DNA of 64,000 nucleotides from an uncultured Gemmatimonadales bacterium (GCA_963825055.1 CAWGSK010000030.1:18882-82881); one strand, 5' to 3'; counted from the first letter of the stretch, positions 16,656-63,165 are shown. Notes: generated by a model from the letters alone, not told the origin. A program made the numbers and translations.

Positions 16656-17827
16656 GCCACTATCAGATCCACCTGCGGCGCCTCCGGCGTCACCCGCGGA
16701 CCGGAGAGACCCATATGGACGTTGATCTCGCTCCGAACCCCGAAACGACCCTCAAGATACACCCCGGGCTCCACCGAAAAACCCACTCCCGGTAAAAGGA
16801 CCCGCTCATCCCGGGTTTCGTAACTGTCCAGATGTGGCCCCGAGCCGTGAAGGTCACGATCGATGGAGTGTCCTGTCCGGTGGACAAATGCCTCACCGTA
16901 GCCGGCCCCTTCTATAATAGCCCGCGCTGCCCGGTCCAGCTCGAACCCCCTGACAGGCCGCCCGGCAGAAGCCGCCGACCGCGCCAGCTCGACCGCGGCA
17001 TCCCGGGCATCACGTACCGTTTCCCAGACGGAAAGCACGTCCGCCGGCGGCTCGGCCCCGGCAAACCCCATCCAGGTCTGGTCGGCGAAGACCGTCCGCC
17101 GACTCCGGCCACCCCACAGGTCCAGCAACACCACATCCCCCGCCTGAAGCTCCGCGTCCTTCCCCTCCATCGGCTCATAGTGCGGATTGGCCGAGTTCGG
17201 CCCGAAACCCACAATCGGAAGGGTATCGAGGGCAAGCCCGCCCTCCTTCATGTCCGCAATCACCCGCCGCTGGAGTTCCACTTCCCGAAGACCCGATCCA
17301 GCCTGCCGAACTGCGTCCTGCACCGCCCGCCGGGCGACCCGGGCCAGTACCTCCGCCGCGAAAAGGTGGTCCTCCAGCTCCTCCGGGGTCCAGGCCGCGG
17401 CAAAACGGGTCACGAGGCTGGAGGACGGAACCACGGTGGCCCCGAGACGGGTCAGGAGCTGGATCACGCCATGGGGCACACGGTCCAGGTAGGGCACCGC
17501 ATCCTCGGGCGAGACCTCCATGGCGACCGTCCGGCCGGCGACCACCCCACGCAGCGCCTCATGCAACTCCTCCCAGCGGGCATACGGCACGACGCGCCCG
17601 GGAAAGTCCTTGAACGGCTGCAACTCGATCCGGTGCACGACGGCCACCGGGTCGCCCGCTTTCGGCAGGTAGACGAACAGCCGGCGTGTTCCCATGCCCA
17701 GGGGGCCAAGCATCCTCGGCGTGACCGGGTTCACCCCATGGAAATCGTAGAGGAGCCAGCCATCGGCTCCCAGTTCATTCAGGGTCTCGGCCAGAAGGCC
17801 TCGATCCAGCCCCGCCAGGTCGGTCAT
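16652..17827 (-). CDS. M24-family metallopeptidase (Xaa-Pro aminopeptidase/dipeptidase-like)
   Basis: 391 aa. Metal-ligand motifs of the pita-bread fold are present: HRTGHSIDRDLHGSGP and VGFSVEPGVY. Confidence 0.8.
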   Translation of the reverse strand: MTDLAGLDRGLLAETLNELGADGWLLYDFHGVNPVTPRMLGPLGMGTRRLFVYLPKAGDPVAVVHRIELQPFKDFPGRVVPYARWEELHEALRGVVAGRTVAMEVSPEDAVPYLDRVPHGVIQLLTRLGATVVPSSSLVTRFAAAWTPEELEDHLFAAEVLARVARRAVQDAVRQAGSGLREVELQRRVIADMKEGGLALDTLPIVGFGPNSANPHYEPMEGKDAELQAGDVVLLDLWGGRSRRTVFADQTWMGFAGAEPPADVLSVWETVRDARDAAVELARSAASAGRPVRGFELDRAARAIIEGAGYGEAFVHRTGHSIDRDLHGSGPHLDSYETRDERVLLPGVGFSVEPGVYLEGRFGVRSEINVHMGLSGPRVTPEAPQVDLIVA

Positions 17828-18450
17828 TCGTCATCTCCCACGTGCGTTGCTTCCCAGTGACAGCGAGCCGCCCCCTGCATCCGGCACCCGCGGTGCAGCA
17901 TCGCCCCCTCGAACCCGGTCTGCAGCCGGAGGAGCTCGGCGAAGGCCGCCCCGTAGAAGGCGCAACTCCGCGAGGCGCCGTCAGACATCACCCCGATGGG
18001 CTCGGCGAGCTCCGCCTCGGCAGTGGACCCGCTCATGGTCAGGCGGCCGCGGAACACCCGCCACGCCACCCGCCGCGCCACGCGAAAGCCGACCCGCCGG
18101 CCCAGAAAACCCGGCGTCGAGTGCACCAGCGACCGCACCGCGATGGTGGCGGTACGCACCGCGTGCCGGGCTGCACGCCGCCCCGCGTCGGCAAAGACAA
18201 GCGAAGCATCGGGGCGCCGGTCCACCAGGCGGAATACTGACACCACCTCTTCCTCGGGGAGCGACTGGTTGCGACGCATGGCATCCGTGTAGCGCTGGAT
18301 CTGCGCCGCCACGGTGGCGCTCAGGCCAAGCCGCTTCGCGACGATTTCTGCCGCGACCTCGCTCAGGCCGTCTTCCACGGGCGTATCGAGGTTGCGCATC
18401 GCTTCGAGCAGGCTCAACGGGATGATCGCGGAGACGCGGTCGGCTGGCAC
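17824..18450 (-). CDS. Hypothetical protein with a V4R-like cysteine motif at the C-terminus (small-molecule-binding domain candidate)
   Basis: C-terminal part of ORF 17824..18906. The tail reads SCAFYGAAFAELLRLQTGFEGAMLHRGCRMQGAARCHWEA. The start is uncertain: GTG 18450, ATG 18399 or ATG 18564. Codon bias weakens upstream of about 18450. The stop overlaps the ATG of the M24 gene (ATGA at 17824..17827). Confidence 0.45.
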   Translation of the reverse strand: MPADRVSAIIPLSLLEAMRNLDTPVEDGLSEVAAEIVAKRLGLSATVAAQIQRYTDAMRRNQSLPEEEVVSVFRLVDRRPDASLVFADAGRRAARHAVRTATIAVRSLVHSTPGFLGRRVGFRVARRVAWRVFRGRLTMSGSTAEAELAEPIGVMSDGASRSCAFYGAAFAELLRLQTGFEGAMLHRGCRMQGAARCHWEATHVGDDE

Positions 18451-18570
18451 GGCAGGCTGTCTCGGGCTTCGGGACGGGTCGCTCGGGCGATGTCGGCCGA
18501 ATCCTAACCGCGCATCGAGGCAGGAGCCAGTAGGAGTTGCTTTCCGGAGCGGCTTCCGGGACATTCCGGC

Positions 18571-19137
18571 ATGACCACGCACGCCCTGGCGCGGGAAGAA
18601 TTCGACGCCGTGGTCCTGCCTCACCTCGACCTGCTCTACCGGACGGCGTTGCGGTTCACGTCCGACCCGGCCCGCGCCGAGGACCTGGTGCAGGATACCA
18701 TGCTCAAGGCCTACCGCTCGCGTACCAGCTTCCAGCCGGGAACCAACGCCCGGGCATGGCTGTTGACCATCCTGCGTAACACGTTCATCAACGCGTACCA
18801 TCGCCGGAAGCGCGAACCGGTCGCCATGGACATCGAGGCGATGGAATCGAGCCTGCGGCCCCGGCCGGATGACCCGGCCGCCGCCGACGGGGCCTTTCTC
18901 GATCACATCGTCGACGAGCGCATCCTCCAGGCCCTGGATGCCCTTCCGCAGGAGTTCCGGGAAGTGCTGGTGCTGAGCGACGTGGAAAACCTGCCCTACG
19001 CGGAGATCGCCCAGGCACTCGACCTGCCCCTGGGCACGGTGAAGTCCCGCCTCTTCCGTGCCCGGCGTCTCATGCGCGCCGAGCTGTATCGCTACGCCGT
19101 GGAGGTGGGTTACCTGTCACCCCGGAGGACTCCATGA
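18571..19137 (+). CDS. ECF-type RNA polymerase sigma factor (SigR/SigE-like)
   Basis: Region 2 reads LLYRTALRFTSDPARAEDLVQDTMLKAY and WLLTILRNTFIN. Region 4 reads LPYAEIAQALDLPLGTVKSRLFRARR. Confidence 0.9.
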   Translation: MTTHALAREEFDAVVLPHLDLLYRTALRFTSDPARAEDLVQDTMLKAYRSRTSFQPGTNARAWLLTILRNTFINAYHRRKREPVAMDIEAMESSLRPRPDDPAAADGAFLDHIVDERILQALDALPQEFREVLVLSDVENLPYAEIAQALDLPLGTVKSRLFRARRLMRAELYRYAVEVGYLSPRRTP

Positions 19138-19397
19138 CCCATGATCACGATTGCGGCGCCGGGGGAGATCCCTGCGGGGAGGCGATGCGGGAGCTGGTGG
19201 ACTACCTGAAGGGCGAAGTCCCCTCCGACGCGGCCGACCGCATCCGGGAACATCTCGCGAAGTGCAGGCCCTGCGAGGGGGAAGCCCACTTCGAGGAACA
19301 CTTCCTCGCCCTGCTGGAGACACGCCTCCGCGGAGAGCGCTGCCCCGACCGCCTCAAGGCCCGGATCCGCGAAGCGCTCGACGCCATCGAGTCCTGA
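19134..19397 (+). CDS. Cytoplasmic zinc-binding anti-sigma factor (ZAS family, RsrA-like)
   Basis: 87 aa with no TM segment. The HLAKCRPC motif fits H-x3-C-x2-C, and there is an upstream Cys. An ATGA overlap links it to the sigma factor gene. Confidence 0.8.
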   Translation: MTHDHDCGAGGDPCGEAMRELVDYLKGEVPSDAADRIREHLAKCRPCEGEAHFEEHFLALLETRLRGERCPDRLKARIREALDAIES

Positions 19398-19440
19398 CAT
19401 CCCCAGCCTGCCCCTTGCCATCCTGCTGTCCGGTGCCGTC

Positions 19441-20163
19441 GTGGCCGGTGCGGCACTTACCGGTCACCTCGGACGATCAGGCGCCGCCGCAGCCATGCTG
19501 GTAGGCACCGCCGTGCTCACGGGCGCGGGTTACGCGGGAGGCCTGACCCTCCTGCTCTTCTTCGTAGGCGCCTCGGCCGTCGGGCACCTCGCGCCCGACC
19601 CGGCCCGCCACCTCGGCGCGCGGGGCGGCCGCCGGGATGCCTGGCAGGTGCTCGCCAACGGCGGCGCCGCCGCCGTTTCCGCCCTCCTCTTCCCCGGTCC
19701 CCTGGCGCTCTGGATGGTGGTTGCGAGCCTCGCGGCTGCCGCCTCCGACACCTGGGCCTCCGGCCTTGGCGCCCTCTCGCGCCGGGAGCCCCGCGACATC
19801 CTCCGGTGGCGGACGGTGCCGGCCGGTACCAGCGGTGGCGTCACCGCGCTGGGGACCGCCGGGGGACTGATCGGCGCCCTGACAGTGGCGCTCCCCCTCG
19901 GCCTCCTGACCCGGGCCGCACCCCCGGCCGCGGCCGCAATGGGGATAGGTTTCGGGGGGATGCTGCTGGACTCGCTCCTGGGCGCCTGGCTGCAGGGCAA
20001 ATTCGCCTGCCGACGGTGCGGGATGAACAGTGAGCGCCGGCGGCACGCATGCGGAGACCTGACAGAGAGGACCGGAGGCCTGACATGGCTCACCAACGAC
20101 GGCGTGAATGCAATCGTAACGGTTTCGGCCGCTGCGGTGTCGTGGTGGGCCTGGCCCTGGTAG
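19441..20163 (+). CDS. DUF92 (TMEM19/COG1836) family integral membrane protein
   Basis: 240 aa, polytopic. Motifs include DAWQVLANGGAAA, ASDTWASGLG, VPAGTSGGVTALGTAGGL and DSLLGAWLQ. It has a GTG start. Confidence 0.7.
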   Translation: MAGAALTGHLGRSGAAAAMLVGTAVLTGAGYAGGLTLLLFFVGASAVGHLAPDPARHLGARGGRRDAWQVLANGGAAAVSALLFPGPLALWMVVASLAAAASDTWASGLGALSRREPRDILRWRTVPAGTSGGVTALGTAGGLIGALTVALPLGLLTRAAPPAAAAMGIGFGGMLLDSLLGAWLQGKFACRRCGMNSERRRHACGDLTERTGGLTWLTNDGVNAIVTVSAAAVSWWAWPW

Positions 20164-20564
20164 CTGCCCTCCTCGGTTGCCGGGCAGAACTCCGATCACC
20201 CACCAGCCCGGGACGGGACACCCCTGACATCGGAACAGGCGGGGGCGGGGACGGCCTGGCGGGAAGCCCGCTGGCCGGCTCGTGGGCCGCCACGTTCCTC
20301 ATCACGCTCCCGACCGACATCCAGCAGCAGACCATCACCTGGACGTTCCGCACGGACGGGGCCTGTGCCCGAACCGTCTCCACCTACTCCACACTTGAGG
20401 ACCGCACGCTCACGACCACCTCCACCTGTGCCTGGGCGGCGGACGGGTCGAGCATCACCGTACAGTACGCTGGCAACACCACAGCGGTGACCTTCGCGTG
20501 GAGCCTGGCGGGGTTCTCACCAGACCGGCTGGTCCTGGACGGAGTCGAGTATGTCCGGCGCTAG
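20085..20564 (+). CDS. Hypothetical lipoprotein
   Basis: ORF 20049..20564. ATG 20085 gives MAHQRRRECNRNGFGRCGVVVGLALVAALLGC, a positively charged n-region followed by a lipobox. It overlaps the end of DUF92 and the start of the next gene. Confidence 0.45.
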   Translation: MAHQRRRECNRNGFGRCGVVVGLALVAALLGCRAELRSPTSPGRDTPDIGTGGGGDGLAGSPLAGSWAATFLITLPTDIQQQTITWTFRTDGACARTVSTYSTLEDRTLTTTSTCAWAADGSSITVQYAGNTTAVTFAWSLAGFSPDRLVLDGVEYVRR

Positions 20565-21780
20565 CGTACCACGTACGGCGGACGTGCTGGTGGCCGGGGC
20601 TGGTCCGGCCGGCAGCCGGCTGGCTGCCCGGCTCGCCTCGGCCGGGTACGACGTCCTGCTGGTCGATCGCGCGGCCTTCCCCCGCGACAAGGCCTGCGCC
20701 GAATACATGAGCCCGGCCACCCTTGAACTTCTCGACCGGGCCGGTGTCCTCGCGCTGGCGGACGCGGCAGGGGCCAACGCGATCGCGGGCACGTCCGTGT
20801 TCGCCCCGCGCGGCTCGCACCTGACGGGCCTGTTCGCCCGCGCGGGACATCGACCGTTCCGCGAGACGGGGATGTCGCTGCCCCGCCGGGTCCTGGACCA
20901 GCTTCTGCTGGACGCCGCCCGCGCTGCCGGAGCCCGGGTGCTCGAGCGCACCACAGTCGAGGCGGTTCTCCGCACGGATGGCCGGGTCTCGGGGGCCCGC
21001 CTGCGTACCGCCGACGGATGCCACCACGAGGTCTCGGCACGGGTCATCGCCGGCACCGACGGGTTGCGCAGCGTGGTCGCCCGGGCAATGGGGCGGCCGC
21101 GGCAACTCGCCCCGCGCCGGATGGCCTTTGTGGCGCACGTGGAGGGCGTTCACGGCCTGGCCGACACCGCACAGATGCACGTCTCCGCCCGGGGATACGT
21201 CGGCCTCAATCCCCTTGGCGGCGATCGGGCGAACGTGTCGCTGGTCCTGGGCCGGGAGCATGCCGTCCGTTCCTCGGGTAGAGTGGAGCCGTTCTTCTTT
21301 GAATCGCTGGAGACGTTTCCAGGGGTGCGTGGTCGCGTGCCGCGCCATGGCCTGGTTCGGGAGGTGCTCGTCACCGGCCCCTTTCACCAGTGGGCTCGCT
21401 CCGTCATCACGGATGGCGCGCTGGTGGCGGGTGACGCCGCCGATTTCTTCGATCCGTTCACGGGCGAGGGCATCTATTGTGCGCTTCGGGGCGCCGAGAT
21501 GGCCGCCGACGTGCTGGAGGAGGCACTGGCAATCCCGGGGCCGGTGACGCGGCGCTCGCTCCAGCCCTACGCCCGGCGGCGGCGCCGCGCGTTTGCGGGG
21601 AAGTGGGCGGTCGAACGCATGATCGGCTACGCCATGAATGCGCCGGCGCTGTTCGACCGGGCCGTCGCACGGCTCGGGCGCCGGGGGTCCATGGCGGATA
21701 CGCTGATCGGCGTGACGGGCGACTTCGTCCCGGCGCGCGAGGTGCTGAATCCGCTCTTCCTCGCCCGGATGGTCTGGTGA
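20551..21780 (+). CDS. FAD-dependent oxidoreductase, geranylgeranyl reductase family
   Basis: The dinucleotide fold reads DVLVAGAGPAGSRLAARLASAGYDVLLVDR. The family motif GDAADFFDPFTGEGIYCAL is present. Confidence 0.8.
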   Translation: MSGASVPRTADVLVAGAGPAGSRLAARLASAGYDVLLVDRAAFPRDKACAEYMSPATLELLDRAGVLALADAAGANAIAGTSVFAPRGSHLTGLFARAGHRPFRETGMSLPRRVLDQLLLDAARAAGARVLERTTVEAVLRTDGRVSGARLRTADGCHHEVSARVIAGTDGLRSVVARAMGRPRQLAPRRMAFVAHVEGVHGLADTAQMHVSARGYVGLNPLGGDRANVSLVLGREHAVRSSGRVEPFFFESLETFPGVRGRVPRHGLVREVLVTGPFHQWARSVITDGALVAGDAADFFDPFTGEGIYCALRGAEMAADVLEEALAIPGPVTRRSLQPYARRRRRAFAGKWAVERMIGYAMNAPALFDRAVARLGRRGSMADTLIGVTGDFVPAREVLNPLFLARMVW

Positions 21781-22262
21781 CGCCCCCGCCGGTCGATCCC
21801 TCTGAGTTCCGGCGCCTGCTGGGCCGCTTCGCCACCGGTGTGGCCATCGTCACGGCCACGGACACGGACGGGAATCCGGCGGGCATGACCGCCAACAGCC
21901 TGACCGCGGTATCGCTCGATCCGCCGCTGGTGTCCGTCTGCGTGGATCGCGCGGCAGACATGCATGTCGTGATGGAAGGCTCGCAGGCCTGGGTCGTGAA
22001 CATTCTCGAATCGGGGCAGGAGTCCCTGAGCCGCCGCTTCGCCCTCAAGCACCCGGACCGGTTCGAGGGCGTCGGGTTCCGGCAGCAAGAGGGGCTCATC
22101 CTGCTCGAAGGTGCGCTCGCGCACATCATCTGCGAACCATTCGCCCGCCACGCCGTGGGCGACCACACGATCTTCATCGGCCGGGTCGTGGGCGGCGAGA
22201 CACACCCGGGAGCGCCACTGCTCTACTATCGGGGCGGATACGCCGGGCTGGGTCGCGGATGA
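21777..22262 (+). CDS. Flavin reductase-like FMN-binding domain protein
   Basis: GTG 21777 overlaps the preceding stop (GTGA). The sequence contains FATGVAIVTATDTDGNPAGMTANSLTAVSLDPPLVSVCV. The upstream part of track ORF 21477..22262 lies inside the previous gene. Confidence 0.75.
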   Translation: MTPPPVDPSEFRRLLGRFATGVAIVTATDTDGNPAGMTANSLTAVSLDPPLVSVCVDRAADMHVVMEGSQAWVVNILESGQESLSRRFALKHPDRFEGVGFRQQEGLILLEGALAHIICEPFARHAVGDHTIFIGRVVGGETHPGAPLLYYRGGYAGLGRG

Positions 22263-22954
22263 CCGACGTGTTGCGCCCCCCTCCCGGCCGTGAACTGCTG
22301 GACGATCCCCATGCCGATGAACGCGCCGCCGGCCTCTCGCTCCACAACATCGCGCGCAGCAACCGCTGGTTCGGGGGCGTTGGCGCCGTCCGGTTCGGGC
22401 TGCGCCGGCTCCTCGCGGGGGCGGGCCTTCCCCGCACCCTGACGCTGCTCGACATCGGAACCGGTATGGGAGATCTGCCCCGCGCCCTGGTCACCACAGC
22501 CCGCCGGGCAGGACACGTTCTCCGGCCATTCGGCGTGGACTGGCTGCGGATCGCGGCCCGGCTGGCCGGGCGCCAGGGCACGCCGACCGTCGTGGCCGAC
22601 GTTGAGGCGCTGCCCGTCCGCGAGCAGAGCGTCGACATCGTTCTCCTGAGCCAGTTCCTGCATCACTTCCCGGCCGACCAGGCCTCCAGGATCCTGATAG
22701 AGGCCGACCGGATCGCCCGGCACGGCGTCATCGTGGCGGACCTGCGCCGCAATGGCGCGGCGGTCGCCGGCTTCTGGATCGGGTCACGGCTTCTCGGGTT
22801 CGATGCAGGCACCCGCGCCGATGGCATCACCTCGGTGCGGCGGGGATACAGCCTGCCCGAGTTCCAGGGCCTGTTCCGCCGGGCCGGGGTGAACGCCTCC
22901 GTTCACCGGCGGCCGGCCTATCGCCTTATCGGCTACTGGCGCCCTGCCCGCTGA
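22259..22954 (+). CDS. Class I SAM-dependent methyltransferase
   Basis: Motif I reads LLDIGTGMGDLP, followed by VDIVLLSQFLHHF. An ATGA overlap links it to the flavin reductase gene. Confidence 0.75.
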   Translation: MTDVLRPPPGRELLDDPHADERAAGLSLHNIARSNRWFGGVGAVRFGLRRLLAGAGLPRTLTLLDIGTGMGDLPRALVTTARRAGHVLRPFGVDWLRIAARLAGRQGTPTVVADVEALPVREQSVDIVLLSQFLHHFPADQASRILIEADRIARHGVIVADLRRNGAAVAGFWIGSRLLGFDAGTRADGITSVRRGYSLPEFQGLFRRAGVNASVHRRPAYRLIGYWRPAR

Positions 22955-23415
22955 TGCGGACCCTGGACCGGCTGTCCATGCGCGCACCACCGCGGGTGGT
23001 GTACGAGGCCGCGCGGGATGTCGAGCGCTGGCCGGACGTGTTGCCGCACTATCGGTGGGTACGGTTCCGGGAACGGAGGCCTGATGGCGGCGTGGTGGAG
23101 ATGGCCGCCTGGCGGCCCTTCGGGGTTTTCCACTGGCCCACGTGGTGGGTCTCCGAGATGTGGACCGATTCGTCGCTGTACACGGTTCGATACCGTCACG
23201 TAGCCGGCATCACCGCGGGGATGGATGTCCGGTGGGAGATTGTGGAGGATGGCGGAGGTTCCGTCATCTCCATTGTTCACGAATGGACGGGCCCGCGGTG
23301 GCCGCTGGTGGGCGGCATGGCTGCCAGCCTGGTCATCGGACCGGTGTTCATCCATGGCATCGCGTCCCGAACCCTCGCCGGGATTCGCCGGCATGTCGAG
23401 CAGTCACATGAATGA
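22954..23415 (+). CDS. SRPBCC-superfamily protein (polyketide cyclase/dehydrase or lipid-binding type)
   Basis: 153 aa. The N-terminus MRAPPRVVYEAARDVERWPDVLPHY is typical of cyclase/dehydrase SRPBCC proteins. A TGATG overlap links it to the methyltransferase gene. Confidence 0.6.
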   Translation: MRTLDRLSMRAPPRVVYEAARDVERWPDVLPHYRWVRFRERRPDGGVVEMAAWRPFGVFHWPTWWVSEMWTDSSLYTVRYRHVAGITAGMDVRWEIVEDGGGSVISIVHEWTGPRWPLVGGMAASLVIGPVFIHGIASRTLAGIRRHVEQSHE

Positions 23416-24649
23416 ACGTCGCGTTGTCATCACAGGGCTGGGCCTGATCACGCCGATCGGGACCGGTCCGGACGGTGTCTGGGCCGGCCTGCGCGCCCGG
23501 CAGAGCGCAGTCCGGGAGATCACCCGCTTCGATCCGTCGCCGTTCCGCAGTCACATCGCGGCGGAGATACCCGAGTTCCATGCGGTGGACCACATGGATT
23601 CCCGGCGCGCGCGGCGACTCGACCGCTTCTCCCAGCTGAGCATCGCGTCCGCGCGCCTCGCCATCGAGGACGCCAGCCTCCGCATCGAGCGGGAGGACTC
23701 GGACCGGCTGGGCGCGATGATGGGTACGGCGCTGGGGGGCGTGGCGCAGGCGGAGGCCCAGCACGCGCGCTACCTGGAAGGCGGAATCCGGAACGTGGAC
23801 CCCGCACTCGCGCTGACGGTCTTCGCGGGGGCGGCAAGCTGCAATATGGCGATCGAATTCGGGCTGACCGGCCCCAACTCCACCAACGGCATGAGCTGCG
23901 CATCCGGGACCATTGCCATCGGCGATGGTTTCCGGACGATTCGCCGCGGCGAGGCGGACGTGATGCTGGCCGGCGGCATCGAGGCTCCCCTGTCCCCGCT
24001 CAGTTTCGGGGCGTTCGCCATCATCCGCGCCATGTCCACGCGGAATGAGGCCCCGGGGAGCGCCAGCCGTCCCTTCGATGCCGGACGCGACGGGTTTGTC
24101 ATGGGCGAAGCCGCCGCCGTGCTCGTTCTGGAGGAGCGGAGCCGCGCGGTGGCCCGCGGGGCACGGATCTATGCCGAAGTCCTGGGGTACGGCCTCACCA
24201 ACGATGCGCACCACATGACCGCGCCGAGGCCGGACGGGGTCCAGGCCGCCCGGGCGATCCGCCTGGCCCTGGCGGATGCGCACGTGGTGGCCGGAGAGAT
24301 CGGATATATCAACGCCCACGGGTCCTCGACGCCGCTGAATGACCCGACCGAGACCGGGTCCATCCGTCAGGTCTTCGGGGAGCAGGCGGGGCGGATTCCA
24401 GTGAGCGGGACCAAGGGGTACTATGGGCACGCGCTGGGCGCGAGCGGCGCCGTCGAGGCCGGCATCTGCGCGCTGGCCAGCACGAACGGGTGGCTTCCCC
24501 CCACCATCAACCTCACCACGCCTGACCCGGCGTGCGACCTCGACTACCTGCCCGGCGAAGGCCGGAAGGCGAGCCCGGAGTTTCTCCTGAGCAATTCATT
24601 CGGGTTCGGGGGGATCAACGCCGCGCTCGTCTTCCAGCGCGCGAGCTGA
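23393..24649 (+). CDS. Beta-ketoacyl synthase, FabF/KAS II type
   Basis: The N-terminus is RRVVITGLGLITPIG. The active-site Cys lies in GMSCASGT, and the His residues lie in INAHGSSTPLND and GHALGASGAVEA. The start is ATG 23393 or 23408; both overlap the previous stop at 23415. Confidence 0.85.
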   Translation: MSSSHMNERRVVITGLGLITPIGTGPDGVWAGLRARQSAVREITRFDPSPFRSHIAAEIPEFHAVDHMDSRRARRLDRFSQLSIASARLAIEDASLRIEREDSDRLGAMMGTALGGVAQAEAQHARYLEGGIRNVDPALALTVFAGAASCNMAIEFGLTGPNSTNGMSCASGTIAIGDGFRTIRRGEADVMLAGGIEAPLSPLSFGAFAIIRAMSTRNEAPGSASRPFDAGRDGFVMGEAAAVLVLEERSRAVARGARIYAEVLGYGLTNDAHHMTAPRPDGVQAARAIRLALADAHVVAGEIGYINAHGSSTPLNDPTETGSIRQVFGEQAGRIPVSGTKGYYGHALGASGAVEAGICALASTNGWLPPTINLTTPDPACDLDYLPGEGRKASPEFLLSNSFGFGGINAALVFQRAS

Positions 24650-24734
24650 CCGCCGCCTTGCTGGGGCCGGGCCCGGCCCCTAAATTGGCCGCCGTTGTGT
24701 GGTTCCCCTCCAACTCCAACGCGGGATTGTCCTG

Positions 24735-25424
24735 ATGCCGTCGTTACCTCGCCGGGCGGTCGCGGAGCTTGTCGGTACCTTCGGGCTGGTTTTCATCGGC
24801 GCCGGCTCGGTCATGATGAGCACGTACGCCGGAACGAACTACGGGCTCCTTGGGATCGCCCTGGCGCACGCGGTGGTCCTGTCGGTCATGGTGACCGCCA
24901 CGATGAACATCTCCGGCGGGCACCTGAATCCCGCGGTCACGGTCGGCTTCATCGTGACGCGCCGTATCGACGCGATATCGGCCATCACCTACCTGCTGGC
25001 CCAGCTCGCCGGCGCCGTCCTCGCCGCCGCCCTGCTGCACTACTTCATCCCCGCCAACCTGTCGCGCGTGGGCGCGCTGGGCACCCCGCTCATCTCGGGG
25101 AACGTCACGCTCGGCATGGCGATCGGCCTCGAGGCGGTACTCACCTTCTTCCTGGTGTCGGCCGTGTTTGGCACCGTCGTCGCGGTTGACGCCCCGAAGG
25201 TCGGCGGTTTCGGTGTCGGCCTCGTGCTGCTGTTCGACATCCTGGTGGGCGGCCCGCTGACCGGCGCGGCCATGAACCCGGCACGCGCCTTCGGCCCGGC
25301 CCTGGTCAGCGGGACATGGACCGGACACGTCGCCTACTGGGCGGGACCGCTCCTCGGCGGGATCGTCGCGGCGCTGTTGTGGGACCTGGTGCTGCTGAGG
25401 GAAACGCATGACCGGAAGGTGTGA
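24735..25424 (+). CDS. aqpZ: Aquaporin / MIP-family channel
   Basis: Two NPA boxes are present (SGGHLNPAVT and AAMNPARAFGP), with six hydrophobic segments. The probable start is ATG 24735 within ORF 24699..25424. Confidence 0.9.
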   Translation: MPSLPRRAVAELVGTFGLVFIGAGSVMMSTYAGTNYGLLGIALAHAVVLSVMVTATMNISGGHLNPAVTVGFIVTRRIDAISAITYLLAQLAGAVLAAALLHYFIPANLSRVGALGTPLISGNVTLGMAIGLEAVLTFFLVSAVFGTVVAVDAPKVGGFGVGLVLLFDILVGGPLTGAAMNPARAFGPALVSGTWTGHVAYWAGPLLGGIVAALLWDLVLLRETHDRKV

Positions 25425-25428
25425 AAGA

Positions 25429-25512
25429 AGTGAATAGTGAGTAGTGAGTAGTGCTTCAGTGCCGGGATCCCGCCTTAAAGCACTAATCACCACCCACTAT
25501 TCACTATTCACT
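25429..25512. repeat. Heptad-repeat palindrome (AGTGAGT units) between convergent genes
   Basis: Left arm: AGTGAAT AGTGAGT AGTGAGT AGTGCTT. Right arm: AAGCACT AATCACC ACCCACT ATTCACT ATTCACT, its imperfect reverse complement. The loop is about 21 nt. Confidence 0.85.
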
Positions 25513-60686: not shown

Positions 60687-61315
60687 CTGATCCAGTCCTT
60701 CAGGTGTGCCAGCGCCGGGCGCAGTTTGTCGAACGCCAGGCGCAGGCGGGTCTTGACGGTACCGATCGGCAGGTCGAGCCGTCCGGCGATCTCCGAATGG
60801 GTGAGCCCCTCGAAGTAGGAGAGGGCAACCACCCGCTGTTGCTCAGCGGGCAGGTCGTTCAAGGCAGCGTGGACCGCGTCATGCACGTGCCAGCCCGGCC
60901 GGGCGGCCTCGTTCGGCTCGACCGCACGATCAAACGGCTCGGTGGAACCGGCCTCCACCCGGACCCGCCGCAGCTTCCGCCGCCAGCGGCCCCGCGCCCG
61001 CAGCCGGTCAATGGCACGGTTGCGCGCCACGCGCATGAGCCAGGGCATGAGACCGTCAGCTTCCGGGTCCAGCAGGTGCGTCCGCCCCCAGAGAGTGACA
61101 AACGTGTCCTGCACCACCTCCTCCGCCTCATGCCGGTCGTGCAGCATTCCCTGCACAAGGCCGAGGAGCCACGGCGCGGCCACATCAATCAGCTCACCCA
61201 GCGCGTCTTCGTCGCCCCGCAGCAGCCGGTCGCGCAGGCCGCGCTCACGCTCGGCTGGTATCAGGCGGATCCCGCCCGCGCCGCTCTCCCGCCTCATGGA
61301 ACGTCCCATGCCCAT
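60683..61315 (-). CDS. ECF-type RNA polymerase sigma factor
   Basis: Motifs are EAEEVVQDTFVTLW, WLMRVARNRAIDRLR and LTHSEIAGRLDLPIGTVKTRLRLA. The start is ATG 61315, 61309 or 61297. The upstream part of the track ORF would run into the aminotransferase gene. Confidence 0.85.
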   Translation of the reverse strand: MGMGRSMRRESGAGGIRLIPAERERGLRDRLLRGDEDALGELIDVAAPWLLGLVQGMLHDRHEAEEVVQDTFVTLWGRTHLLDPEADGLMPWLMRVARNRAIDRLRARGRWRRKLRRVRVEAGSTEPFDRAVEPNEAARPGWHVHDAVHAALNDLPAEQQRVVALSYFEGLTHSEIAGRLDLPIGTVKTRLRLAFDKLRPALAHLKDWIR

Positions 61316-62998: not shown

Positions 62999-63165
62999 GC
63001 AATCTCCTGCATTGATGTGACAATGTGGGCCGAGTCCGGCCTCTGGTCATTGTGCTCCTCTGCGCGTGAAGTAGCCGTGACCCATATCACATGCCTCGGA
63101 TGGCCTGCTTTGCGGTCACCCTGCGGCCCCCCTTACATTCGGCCACCGCACTCATCGGGGGCCTG

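Follow-up and report, generated by a model that had tools for sequence, protein, structure and literature searches.

A Coupled SRPBCC Protein-Ketosynthase Pair in a Multiphylum Gene Cassette, Its Joining to a SigR/RsrA-Like Module in Gemmatimonadota, and a Possible Role in Phenolic-Lipid Biosynthesis

Introduction

In hidABC and in operons of planctomycetes, the genes for a methyltransferase, a flavin adenine dinucleotide (FAD) oxidoreductase, and a type III polyketide synthase (PKS) are arranged in that order; the PKS is the enzyme that synthesizes the alkylresorcinol, and the ring is tailored by the remaining two (PMC10896814, PMC8086630). Operons of this phenolic-lipid (hierridin/alkylresorcinol) type are functionally the closest counterparts of the gene row discussed in this article, which begins at position 18571 of a 64,000-nucleotide stretch of DNA from an uncultured Gemmatimonadales bacterium (GCA_963825055.1, CAWGSK010000030.1:18882-82881), the whole of which is referred to here as the window. 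The row contains a ketosynthase (KS) gene directly preceded by the gene of an SRPBCC protein, and this pair, together with the cassette in which it is usually found, is the main subject of the analysis. The G+C content of the window is 65-71%, and the closest relatives of its proteins are, by annotation, from Gemmatimonadota/Gemmatimonadales metagenome-assembled genomes. No prior description of the cassette was found in the literature.

The cassette resembles hidABC, the planctomycete mtr-fdo-t3pks operons, and srsABC in combining a synthase with a methyltransferase and an FAD oxidoreductase, and its common form shares with hidABC and the planctomycete operons the order methyltransferase-oxidoreductase-synthase, HidA and HidB being likened to the cassette enzymes by published description and gene order. 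It also has in common with the type III PKS clusters that were inspected the kinds of methyltransferase (NF004851) and of flavoprotein, the latter resembling geranylgeranyl reductases (GGRs). It differs from the hid and srs clusters in containing no type III PKS, the position of which is occupied by an SRPBCC protein and a FabF-like KS. An initial interpretation of the window, made from the DNA alone and referred to here as the sequence-only reading, had stated that the enzyme set matches no textbook fatty-acid synthase (FAS), aryl-polyene, or type II PKS cluster, which is correct; the phenolic-lipid operon, its nearest analogue, had been missing from that comparison.

A second relevant comparison is with the type II PKSs, which the cassette resembles in possessing a discrete KS with a Cys-His-His triad and a helix-grip partner similar to aromatase/cyclases, and from which it differs in having neither a chain-length factor (CLF) nor an acyl carrier protein (ACP) and in a KS that resembles FabF more closely than it does the actinorhodin KS. 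A KS-CLF pair and an ACP define the minimal type II PKS, and catalogues of such clusters take the KS-CLF pair as their anchor (PMC10132072), so that they would miss the cassette.

The SRPBCC-KS Pair and Its Distribution

The genes of the window that correspond to the usual form of the cassette are as follows.

20551-21780, plus strand: flavoprotein of the GGR superfamily (TIGR02032, 159.7 bits against a cut-off of 158.8)
22259-22954, plus strand: class I S-adenosylmethionine (SAM) methyltransferase of the PRK06202 (NF004851) kind (NF004851 is the top family, 116 bits)
22954-23415, plus strand: SRPBCC protein of an aromatase/cyclase-like subfamily, assigned by invariant motifs and by profile comparison with the PDB
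23408-24649, plus strand: FabF-like KS (TIGR03150, 502.2 bits against a cut-off of 493.75)

The SRPBCC and KS genes of the window share 8 nt (ATGAATGA). The distribution of this arrangement was examined by scanning GTDB, with one genome per species, for the single SRPBCC pattern WP[EQR]ILPHYR, which was taken from a narrower profile (A2) after an earlier one (A1) had proved too diverse to give a search pattern. The scan returned 453 confirmed matches, a number of species that is a lower bound because the pattern misses WPDVLPHYR, the form present in the window itself, and in which Gemmatimonadota are under-sampled. Gene neighbourhoods were mapped across phyla for the best 80 of the 453 loci, which come from Armatimonadota, Eremiobacterota/Vulcanimicrobiota, Rubrobacteraceae, Nitrospirota, Nitrospinota, Gemmatimonadota, Chloroflexota (Thermomicrobiales, Dehalococcoidia, Limnocylindria, Chloroflexia, and Ktedonobacterales), Bacteroidota (Chitinophagaceae and Ignavibacteriales), and Verrucomicrobiota (Chthoniobacterales).

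A KS gene lies directly 3′ of the SRPBCC gene in 78 of these 80 loci, across at least nine phyla, and one of the exceptions is a contig end. Each of the 78 has a single KS beside the SRPBCC gene; these KSs are 50-65% identical to that of the window, and the SRPBCC stop overlaps the KS start in 56 of the 78 (median distance, -4 nt). The usual cassette reads methyltransferase-flavoprotein-SRPBCC-KS, with the order methyltransferase-SRPBCC-KS-flavoprotein in Bacteroidota, and a type III PKS gene is absent from all 80 loci. Natural fusions of the methyltransferase to the SRPBCC protein (P0246) and of the flavoprotein to the SRPBCC protein (P0341 and P0342) occur among metagenomic sequences. A five-gene core had been suggested by the sequence-only reading; its conservation is real and wider than guessed, although the invariant part is SRPBCC-KS, usually accompanied by the methyltransferase and the flavoprotein, and the flavin reductase is confined to Gemmatimonadota. 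Judged by gene order and junctions, the ancient core is a two-protein SRPBCC-KS unit with predicted translational coupling.

Several variants of the cassette were also recorded. In Chthoniobacterales, the row MFS_3-LPG_synthase_TM-RibD_C-SRPBCC-KS (L029:5946-11701 and 14 other loci) is found with trmD and ffh nearby. An armatimonadotal locus (L005:8568-13361) reads B12-binding radical SAM protein-SRPBCC-KS-methyltransferase-dienelactone hydrolase, and a bacteroidotal locus (L015:7980-12895) reads dienelactone hydrolase-cupredoxin-methyltransferase-SRPBCC-KS-flavoprotein; the alpha/beta hydrolase recurring in these two variants could be the missing release enzyme. One further protein (P0309) joins an apparent cytochrome P450 N-terminus to an SRPBCC domain and may be an assembly artefact, and an SRPBCC protein 72% identical to that of the window (P0148) bears the source label "Bacillota bacterium", probably belonging to a mis-binned Gemmatimonadota contig.

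A Distinct Ketosynthase Subfamily

The sequence-only reading had described the KS as FabF-type with an intact Cys-His-His triad. The triad is indeed intact (motifs SCASG, AHHMTAP, and NAHGSST), as are the catalytic Lys and the GFGG loop, and the best solved relatives are true FabFs, namely those of B. subtilis (407 bits, 47% identity) and Thermus (50%); the designation FabF-type needs qualification, since the fabF model is passed only marginally and the protein falls into a separate subfamily. This can be seen in a comparison of 74 SRPBCC-linked KSs from all phyla with three true FabFs, in which GxGIGG is replaced by GTALGG (100% of the 74), SPFF(V/I)PMMI by (D)PxLALxVF (DPALALTVF in the window), HGTST by HGSST, and GGHNA by GGINA, these signature substitutions being fixed in 86-100% of the 74 sequences. 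The window KS accordingly lacks the pocket/interface motifs GxGIGG and SPFF(V/I)P of FabF. Across phyla, the SRPBCC-linked KSs are 47-59% identical to one another and 42-49% identical to FabFs, and a scan for the DSL motif detected no ACP gene in 84 loci or in the window. While the KS of the window thus shares with FabF the triad, the Lys, the GFGG loop, 47-50% identity to the Bacillus and Thermus enzymes, and the pass of TIGR03150, it differs in its pocket/interface substitutions, in having no acpP neighbour, and in the SRPBCC gene upstream. The substitution pattern argues that it is a member of a separate, old subfamily that is distinct from housekeeping FabF.

It is very improbable that an ordinary housekeeping fabF simply lies beside unrelated genes here, or that the flavoprotein and the flavin reductase constitute a two-component halogenase. 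The former would agree with the pass of TIGR03150, but a chance location of housekeeping fabF was rejected because the KS has its own fixed signature, is unlinked to acpP, and is obligately coupled to the SRPBCC gene over nine phyla. The signature, the identities across phyla, and the linkage to SRPBCC genes also argue against a clean grouping with housekeeping FabF, which the sequence-only reading had named as an observation that would count against its proposal. Annotation pipelines currently label the pair as "fabF" and "SRPBCC family protein"; whatever the chemistry may be, the KS signature and the SRPBCC motif provide a clean, testable pair of markers.

The SRPBCC Protein and Type II PKS Aromatase/Cyclases

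Within the set, conservation is highest for the SRPBCC protein (65-74% identity within the phylum), and its subfamily is compact, comprising 577 clusters at 50% identity that are characterized by the invariant motifs WP..LPHYR, H..G.T.GM.V.W, and F...IA..TL. When the subfamily profile was compared with the PDB, the top 10 matches were all type II PKS aromatase/cyclases, including BexL (8e-18), WhiE (2e-13), and TcmN (2.5e-10), as well as ZhuI and StfQ, and generic START/COQ10-like structures such as 1t17 ranked far below them. The AlphaFold2 (AF2) model of the window protein has a confidence score (pLDDT) of 89 and gives Foldseek TM scores of 0.77-0.86 to TcmN, WhiE, and ZhuI. In the pocket, where the catalytic residues of TcmN are Tyr35 and Arg69, the catalytic Tyr of TcmN and WhiE (Tyr35) corresponds in the alignment to the Tyr within the invariant LPHYR, and the equivalents of Trp28, Trp65, Met91, and Trp95 are also kept, but not that of Arg69; an invariant Arg directly follows the LPHYR Tyr. 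Profile and model together indicate that the SRPBCC protein has a helix-grip fold and is related to the type II PKS aromatase/cyclases. A tblastn search of plasmids with the SRPBCC protein gave no match.

Tailoring Enzymes Shared with Type III PKS Clusters

The methyltransferase and the flavoprotein connect the cassette with the known phenolic-lipid operons. NF004851 is the top family not only for the methyltransferase of the window but also for those of the Thermomicrobiales and Bacteroidota cassettes and for methyltransferases linked to type III PKSs, to which the window protein is about 32% identical; that of Deinococcus sp. QL22 is a full member of the family (318 bits). All six plasmid contexts of methyltransferase homologues that were inspected contain a type III PKS and an FAD monooxygenase. 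The flavoproteins linked to type III PKSs in alphaproteobacteria are of the same GGR-like kind, and the Cys in FPRDKACAEY is invariant in 67 of 67 sequences, 64 from cassettes and three from type III PKS clusters of three alphaproteobacteria. The pair formed by this methyltransferase and this flavoprotein is common to the cassette and to type III PKS clusters.

As regards its own family, the flavoprotein marginally passes TIGR02032 and contains the GGR Cys and the motif GDAA..DP.TG.GI, and its next-best models are those of the monooxygenase QhpG (95 bits), MenJ, and the Ubi-hydroxylases. It resembles GGR, MenJ, and QhpG in these features and differs from them in the degeneration of YxWxFP to YVGLNP and in its pairing with a flavin reductase in Gemmatimonadota; the family spans both reductases and aromatic-ring monooxygenases (QhpG and LodB). 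The halogenase explanation mentioned above would be in keeping with CndH, the best PDB match of the flavoprotein, and with the adjacent flavin reductase, but it was rejected, as Lys76 of CndH is replaced by Ile or Ala and the second halogenase motif, WxWxIP, is absent and reads YVGLNP.

One of the type III PKS clusters, on plasmid pLA3 of Novosphingobium pentaromativorans (L165), has its own KS, a phosphopantetheine-binding protein, and a DUF2147 gene. Divergent from it lies a gene for a PRK06202-type methyltransferase, followed by genes for an extracytoplasmic function (ECF) sigma factor, FecR, and a TonB receptor, so that here another sigma factor stands beside a type III PKS cluster. The pLA3 KS was checked for membership of the SRPBCC-linked subfamily and lies outside it.

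The same two enzymes would also figure in the tailoring of an isoprenoid quinone or chromanol, in which the flavoprotein would act as a side-chain reductase of the MenJ/GGR type, the methyltransferase as a ring methylase like UbiE/MenG, the SRPBCC protein as a COQ10-like quinone-binding protein, and the DUF92 protein encoded in the Gemmatimonadota operon as a prenyl-phosphate kinase, with the KS being accessory or unrelated. In plants, the prenyl-phosphate kinase VTE6 offers a parallel for DUF92. This explanation, which is regarded as improbable, draws on the MenJ, UbiE/MenG, MpqE, and Ubi-hydroxylase models that appear as secondary matches of the flavoprotein and the methyltransferases, on the presence of DUF92 in the Gemmatimonadota operon, on the family PF03364, which also covers COQ10 and RatA, and on the name "COQ10" that some sources give to homologues. 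However, it does not account for the KS, which accompanies the SRPBCC protein invariably, and in translationally coupled form, from phylum to phylum; a prenyltransferase is absent from every cassette, DUF92 occurs only in Gemmatimonadota, and the COQ10-like structure 1t17 lies far below the aromatase/cyclases in the SRPBCC profile search.

A Possible Phenolic-Lipid Pathway

Based on these comparisons, it is tentatively proposed, with a confidence that falls slightly short of even, that the SRPBCC protein and the KS replace the type III PKS in a phenolic-lipid pathway of the resorcinol/quinol type. Because the gene order is hid-like, the methyltransferase and the flavoprotein are of the same kinds, and the SRPBCC-KS pair occupies the place of the type III PKS, the relationship would be one of non-orthologous displacement of the synthase. 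The substrate, the product, the chemistry of the flavoprotein, what DUF92, the lipoprotein, and the aquaporin do in the Gemmatimonadota operon, and any induction by redox stress are all inferred.

In the proposed pathway, the KS would accept a fatty acyl thioester from the fatty-acid machinery of the cell and extend it with malonyl units without reduction, and the SRPBCC protein would fold, dehydrate, and cyclise the poly-beta-keto end to give a resorcinol- or pyrone-type head group, the two proteins together doing the work of the type III PKS in hierridin/alkylresorcinol operons. The PRK06202-type methyltransferase would then methylate the ring, and the GGR-like flavoprotein, supplied with reduced flavin by a dedicated flavin reductase in Gemmatimonadota, would hydroxylate it or reduce the product. 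The end product would be a methylated alkyl-phenol or alkyl-quinol lipid, for which the lipocalin-like lipoprotein might serve as an envelope carrier.

A number of observations speak against this pathway. The KS passes the fabF equivalog model and scores higher against B. subtilis FabF (407 bits) than against the actinorhodin KS (304 bits). In none of the phyla is the SRPBCC-KS pair accompanied by a gene for an ACP, a CLF, a ketoreductase, or a thioesterase, an absence that the sequence-only reading had noted for the window and that holds throughout; the 64-kb window likewise encodes neither a further KS or a CLF nor a type III PKS, and an ACP-like DSL motif is absent from it. We know of no precedent for an iterative KS that operates without reduction and uses the housekeeping ACP. 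The position of TcmN Arg69 is Q or M and unconserved in the SRPBCC family, the window methyltransferase remains below the NF004851 cut-off (116 against 243), and no methyltransferase or flavoprotein is detectable in the Chthoniobacterales loci. In addition, since the Cys typical of C=C-reducing GGRs is kept, the flavoprotein may be a reductase rather than a hydroxylase.

The chief rival to the phenolic-lipid pathway is the modification of fatty-acyl chains of membrane lipids without any aromatic product, in which the SRPBCC protein and the KS would act on acyl-ACP in a specialized elongation or at a branch point, for instance by forming or lengthening an unsaturated or otherwise unusual chain, and the methyltransferase together with the GGR-like flavoprotein as ene-reductase would convert a double bond into a mid-chain methyl branch through methylenation and reduction. 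10-Methyl fatty acids are made by the methyltransferase BfaB and the FAD-dependent reductase BfaA, and Thermomicrobiales and Rubrobacteraceae, both of which carry the cassette, are known for mid-chain methyl-branched lipids. Although the acyl-chain pathway is considered unlikely, it accounts well for the strong similarity of the KS to FabF and its pass of TIGR03150, for the lack of a dedicated ACP gene in the cassette loci (which would imply that the ACP of the FAS is used), for the position of the flavoprotein in the C=C-reducing GGR superfamily with its Cys kept, and for the B12-binding radical SAM protein, a typical C-methylase, that adjoins SRPBCC-KS in the armatimonadotal locus L005. Against it, the methyltransferase lies outside the cyclopropane/mycolic-acid synthase family, and NF004851 accompanies resorcinol-making type III PKSs; among solved structures, the SRPBCC protein is closest to aromatase/cyclases rather than to acyl-ACP isomerases or dehydratases; and if it acts only on ACP-bound intermediates, its fusions to the methyltransferase and to the flavoprotein are difficult to account for.

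What would be new in the phenolic-lipid pathway is a cluster of this type with a displaced synthase, and the joining to a putative thiol switch in Gemmatimonadota would add a further twist. A bolder version, which is rather doubtful, holds that SRPBCC-KS is an unrecognised, CLF-less and ACP-less "type II-like" counterpart of the type III PKSs that form alkylresorcinols, distributed over at least nine soil phyla, most of them uncultured, and invisible to cluster finders, and that an RsrA-type switch in Gemmatimonadota governs the formation of a membrane antioxidant (alkyl-quinol) under oxidative or electrophile stress. If the SRPBCC protein and the KS do form a synthase of resorcinol or pyrone lipids, this would be a third route to phenolic lipids beside the type III PKSs and the DarAB-type enzymes, and it would represent a living example of a FabF-derived KS that has an aromatase/cyclase as its partner yet lacks both a CLF and a dedicated ACP, which bears on how fatty-acid synthesis gave rise to type II PKSs. 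Soil phyla that are abundant but poorly represented in culture (Gemmatimonadota, Chloroflexota, Armatimonadota, Eremiobacterota, and Chthoniobacterales) commonly carry the module, and the product of the cassette could be a widespread, as yet unassigned class of lipids or a biomarker.

The Ten-Gene Row in the Window

The nine plus-strand genes that the sequence-only reading had placed head to tail between 18571 and 24649 were all recovered by open reading frame listing and by Pfam and NCBIfam scans, and a tenth co-oriented gene extends the row. In addition to the four genes given above, the features of the region are as follows.

17824-18399, minus strand: divergent V4R/BchJ-like gene, here called div208 (TIGR02019 BchJ, 26 bits, E 6e-6)
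18537-18565, plus strand: promoter-like element TTGCTT-N17-GACATT, ending 5 nt 5′ of the sigma ATG
18571-19137, plus strand: ECF sigma factor, SigH/SigR-like (Sigma70_r2 and r4_2 domains)
19134-19397, plus strand: RsrA-like cytoplasmic zinc-binding anti-sigma factor (ZAS) of 87 aa (zf-HC2 domain)
19441-20163, plus strand: DUF92 integral membrane protein (PF01940, E 2e-52)
20085 (or about 20142)-20564, plus strand: lipoprotein with a lipocalin-like barrel (LLGC lipobox)
21777-22262, plus strand: NAD(P)H:flavin reductase of the HpaC/StyB/HsaB type (PF01613, E 1e-41)
24663-24686, plus strand: GC-rich hairpin GGGGCCGGGCCCGGCCCC followed by TAAATT in the gap between the KS and MIP genes, read from the sequence
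24699-25424, plus strand: MIP channel resembling aquaporin Z, with which the row ends (PF00230, E 2e-52)
25421-25511, plus strand: long imperfect hairpin of heptamer repeats (-42.3 kcal/mol, z -6.5)

The junctions within the row are overlaps of 1-14 nt or short gaps, and the overlaps that had been reported, ATGA between the sigma and anti-sigma genes, GTGA between the flavoprotein and flavin reductase genes, ATGA between the flavin reductase and methyltransferase genes, and TGATG between the methyltransferase and SRPBCC genes, are all read in the sequence. The KS and MIP genes are separated by 49 nt. A terminator scan detected no credible internal terminator in the row and did not call the hairpin at 24663-24686, which is possibly an attenuator. 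The hairpin at 25421-25511, which directly follows the MIP stop and whose free energy is matched by none of 200 shuffled sequences, is likely to be the end of the unit, shared with convergent ccm genes.

Overlapping junctions, the lack of an internal terminator, the 3′ hairpin, and the recurring gene order agree with the earlier claim of a coupled operon, and the region is probably a single operon of ten genes. Co-transcription of the regulators with the enzymes is well supported by the conserved row in relatives and by the xTGA overlap that most of these have between the anti-sigma and DUF92 genes.

Conservation of the Row in Gemmatimonadota

Two other Gemmatimonadota, on contigs of 3.7 and 3.0 Mb (L001 and L002), have all ten genes in an unchanged order, with 42-75% identity between the proteins. 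A scan of metagenomes seeded with the sigma factor yielded 80 loci (sigma identity, 50-69%), and the genes 3′ of the sigma gene were counted in those loci whose contigs were long enough to judge. The anti-sigma gene was present in 70 of 73 loci, DUF92 in 40 of 46, the flavoprotein in 18 of 20, the flavin reductase in 16 of 17, the methyltransferase in 12 of 14, the SRPBCC gene in 11 of 13, and the KS in 10 of 12, and a MIP gene followed the KS in six of nine. The row, which recurs in genomes and soil metagenomes at a protein identity of only 50-65%, is beyond a chance neighbourhood.

The flavin reductase, DUF92, the lipoprotein, the MIP channel, and the sigma pair belong to the cassette only in Gemmatimonadota, and the RsrA-like sigma module, DUF92, the lipoprotein, the flavin reductase, and the aquaporin are additions of this phylum to the core. 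The ECF sigma/RsrA-like pair provides the first two genes in one large sublineage of Gemmatimonadota. Three Gemmatimonadales loci (L051, L071, and L072) have no sigma pair and read div208-DUF92-flavoprotein-flavin reductase-methyltransferase-SRPBCC-KS.

The Sigma/Anti-Sigma Pair and the Promoter

The designation of the first two genes as a SigR/RsrA-like pair is confirmed by their best family models, by the HxxxCxxC motif with an N-terminal Cys, and by the soluble nature of the anti-sigma factor, with scores below the curated cut-offs. The sigma factor contains only the sigma-2 and sigma-4 domains, has its cognate anti-sigma gene directly downstream, and matches TIGR02947 (SigH_actino) best, at 154.3 bits against a cut-off of 251.55. 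The anti-sigma factor scores 54.1 bits with TIGR03988 (antisig_RsrA; cut-off 62.5), contains the zinc motif H40xxxC44xxC47 and C14, and has no hydrophobic or transmembrane segment in its 87 residues. The pair resembles SigR-RsrA and SigH-RshA of Actinomycetota in the succession of an ECF sigma factor and a small soluble ZAS with these zinc-motif residues, and differs from them in phylum, in its sub-cut-off scores, in having no GGAAT-N18-GTT promoter, and in being joined to a biosynthetic operon rather than located beside targets of the thioredoxin system.

An ECF promoter motif upstream of 18571 and 19441 had been suggested as a check by the sequence-only reading. The SigR-type motif GGAAT-N18-GTT has six matches in the window, where 6.0 are expected, none of them upstream of either position, and a scan for generic sigma-70 promoters of the window found nothing. 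Alignment of the upstream regions of 73 related loci revealed the motif nACATT 5-8 nt 5′ of the sigma ATG in 51 of the 73, with a TTGCGT-like -35 hexamer 17 nt 5′ of it in the subgroup of the window; the consensus of the element is TTGCKT-N17-nACATT, in which the -10-like nACATT is kept and the -35 is variable. The pattern TTGC-N19-21-ACATT occurs twice in the window against an expectation of 0.27, and its other occurrence, at 63110-63139 (plus strand), is probably unrelated because no start codon lies within the next 5-8 nt. The position of the element at 18537-18565 suggests a leaderless transcript from a primary-sigma-type promoter. TTGCGA-N17-GACATT-N7-ATG is found directly 5′ of DUF92 in two of the loci that have no sigma pair (L051 and L072), and the promoter therefore appears to predate the sigma genes or to be independent of them.

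The assumption that a redox-stress sigma factor upstream implies stress induction is accordingly not supported, as there is no SigR-type promoter and the housekeeping-like element is also present in relatives without the sigma genes. The pair may well be a passenger that was inserted behind an older promoter of the housekeeping type and whose regulon lies elsewhere; the chances of this are put somewhat below even, and it would compete only with the stress-induction part of the interpretation. A conserved -10 with a variable -35 is typical of primary-sigma promoters in high-GC bacteria, and the same row of genes in the three sigma-less loci also fits a passenger. On the other hand, the linkage between this sigma clade and the cassette is nearly obligate, and the sigma module is translationally coupled to DUF92; ECF sigma genes are usually autoregulated, with the promoter specificity of this particular clade in question; and a block GGAAC(A/T)TAG is conserved 60-70 nt upstream of the sigma gene in many loci, being located inside the N-terminal coding region of div208 in one subgroup and having no fixed -10 partner at 16-17 nt. 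As judged from junctions and recurrence, the sigma pair is firmly part of the operon, and its joining to the cassette in one lineage, as a putatively thiol-sensing switch, gives a means of learning under which conditions and for what purpose such lipids are formed.

Elsewhere in the window, at 60743-61126 (minus strand), lies the gene of another ECF sigma factor, a paralogue that is 35% identical to the first over 130 aa.

Accessory Genes and Other Features

The gap of 43 nt between the anti-sigma and DUF92 genes is peculiar to the window. A difference of one base in the reading frame removes the xTGA start in the window, so that GTG at 19441 is the first canonical start of DUF92, whereas the homology reaches upstream, in frame, to 19396, with no ATG, GTG, or TTG before 19441; the window protein has either a shortened N-terminus or a start codon of a non-canonical kind.

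The start of the lipoprotein is uncertain, being at 20085 or at about 20142 as in an identical public protein. Its AF2 model is an eight-stranded beta-barrel with pLDDT above 90 for residues 60-159, for which Foldseek returns weak matches (E >= 0.004), mostly to lipocalins such as Blc, and the match to Lipocalin_4 is sub-threshold (E 0.002). The protein is fast-evolving, with seven homologues found, and because the fold matches are weak, the label lipocalin-like is tentative.

The product of div208 has about 192-203 aa with conserved Cys residues, depending on a start at 18399 or at about 18435. Its weak V4R/BchJ-like match suggests a domain that binds small hydrophobic ligands. The gene is divergent 5′ of the sigma gene in 49 of 53 assessable metagenome loci and is also present in L001, L002, L051, L071, and L072. 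Since it accompanies the Gemmatimonadota cassettes with or without the sigma pair, it may be the real local regulator or sensor.

The hairpin at 25421-25511 is built of tandem heptamers (TAGTGAG...), and palindromes of other heptamer repeats are also found in intergenic regions of L085, L093, L105, L139, and L140, which together look like a REP-like or terminator element family of Gemmatimonadota.

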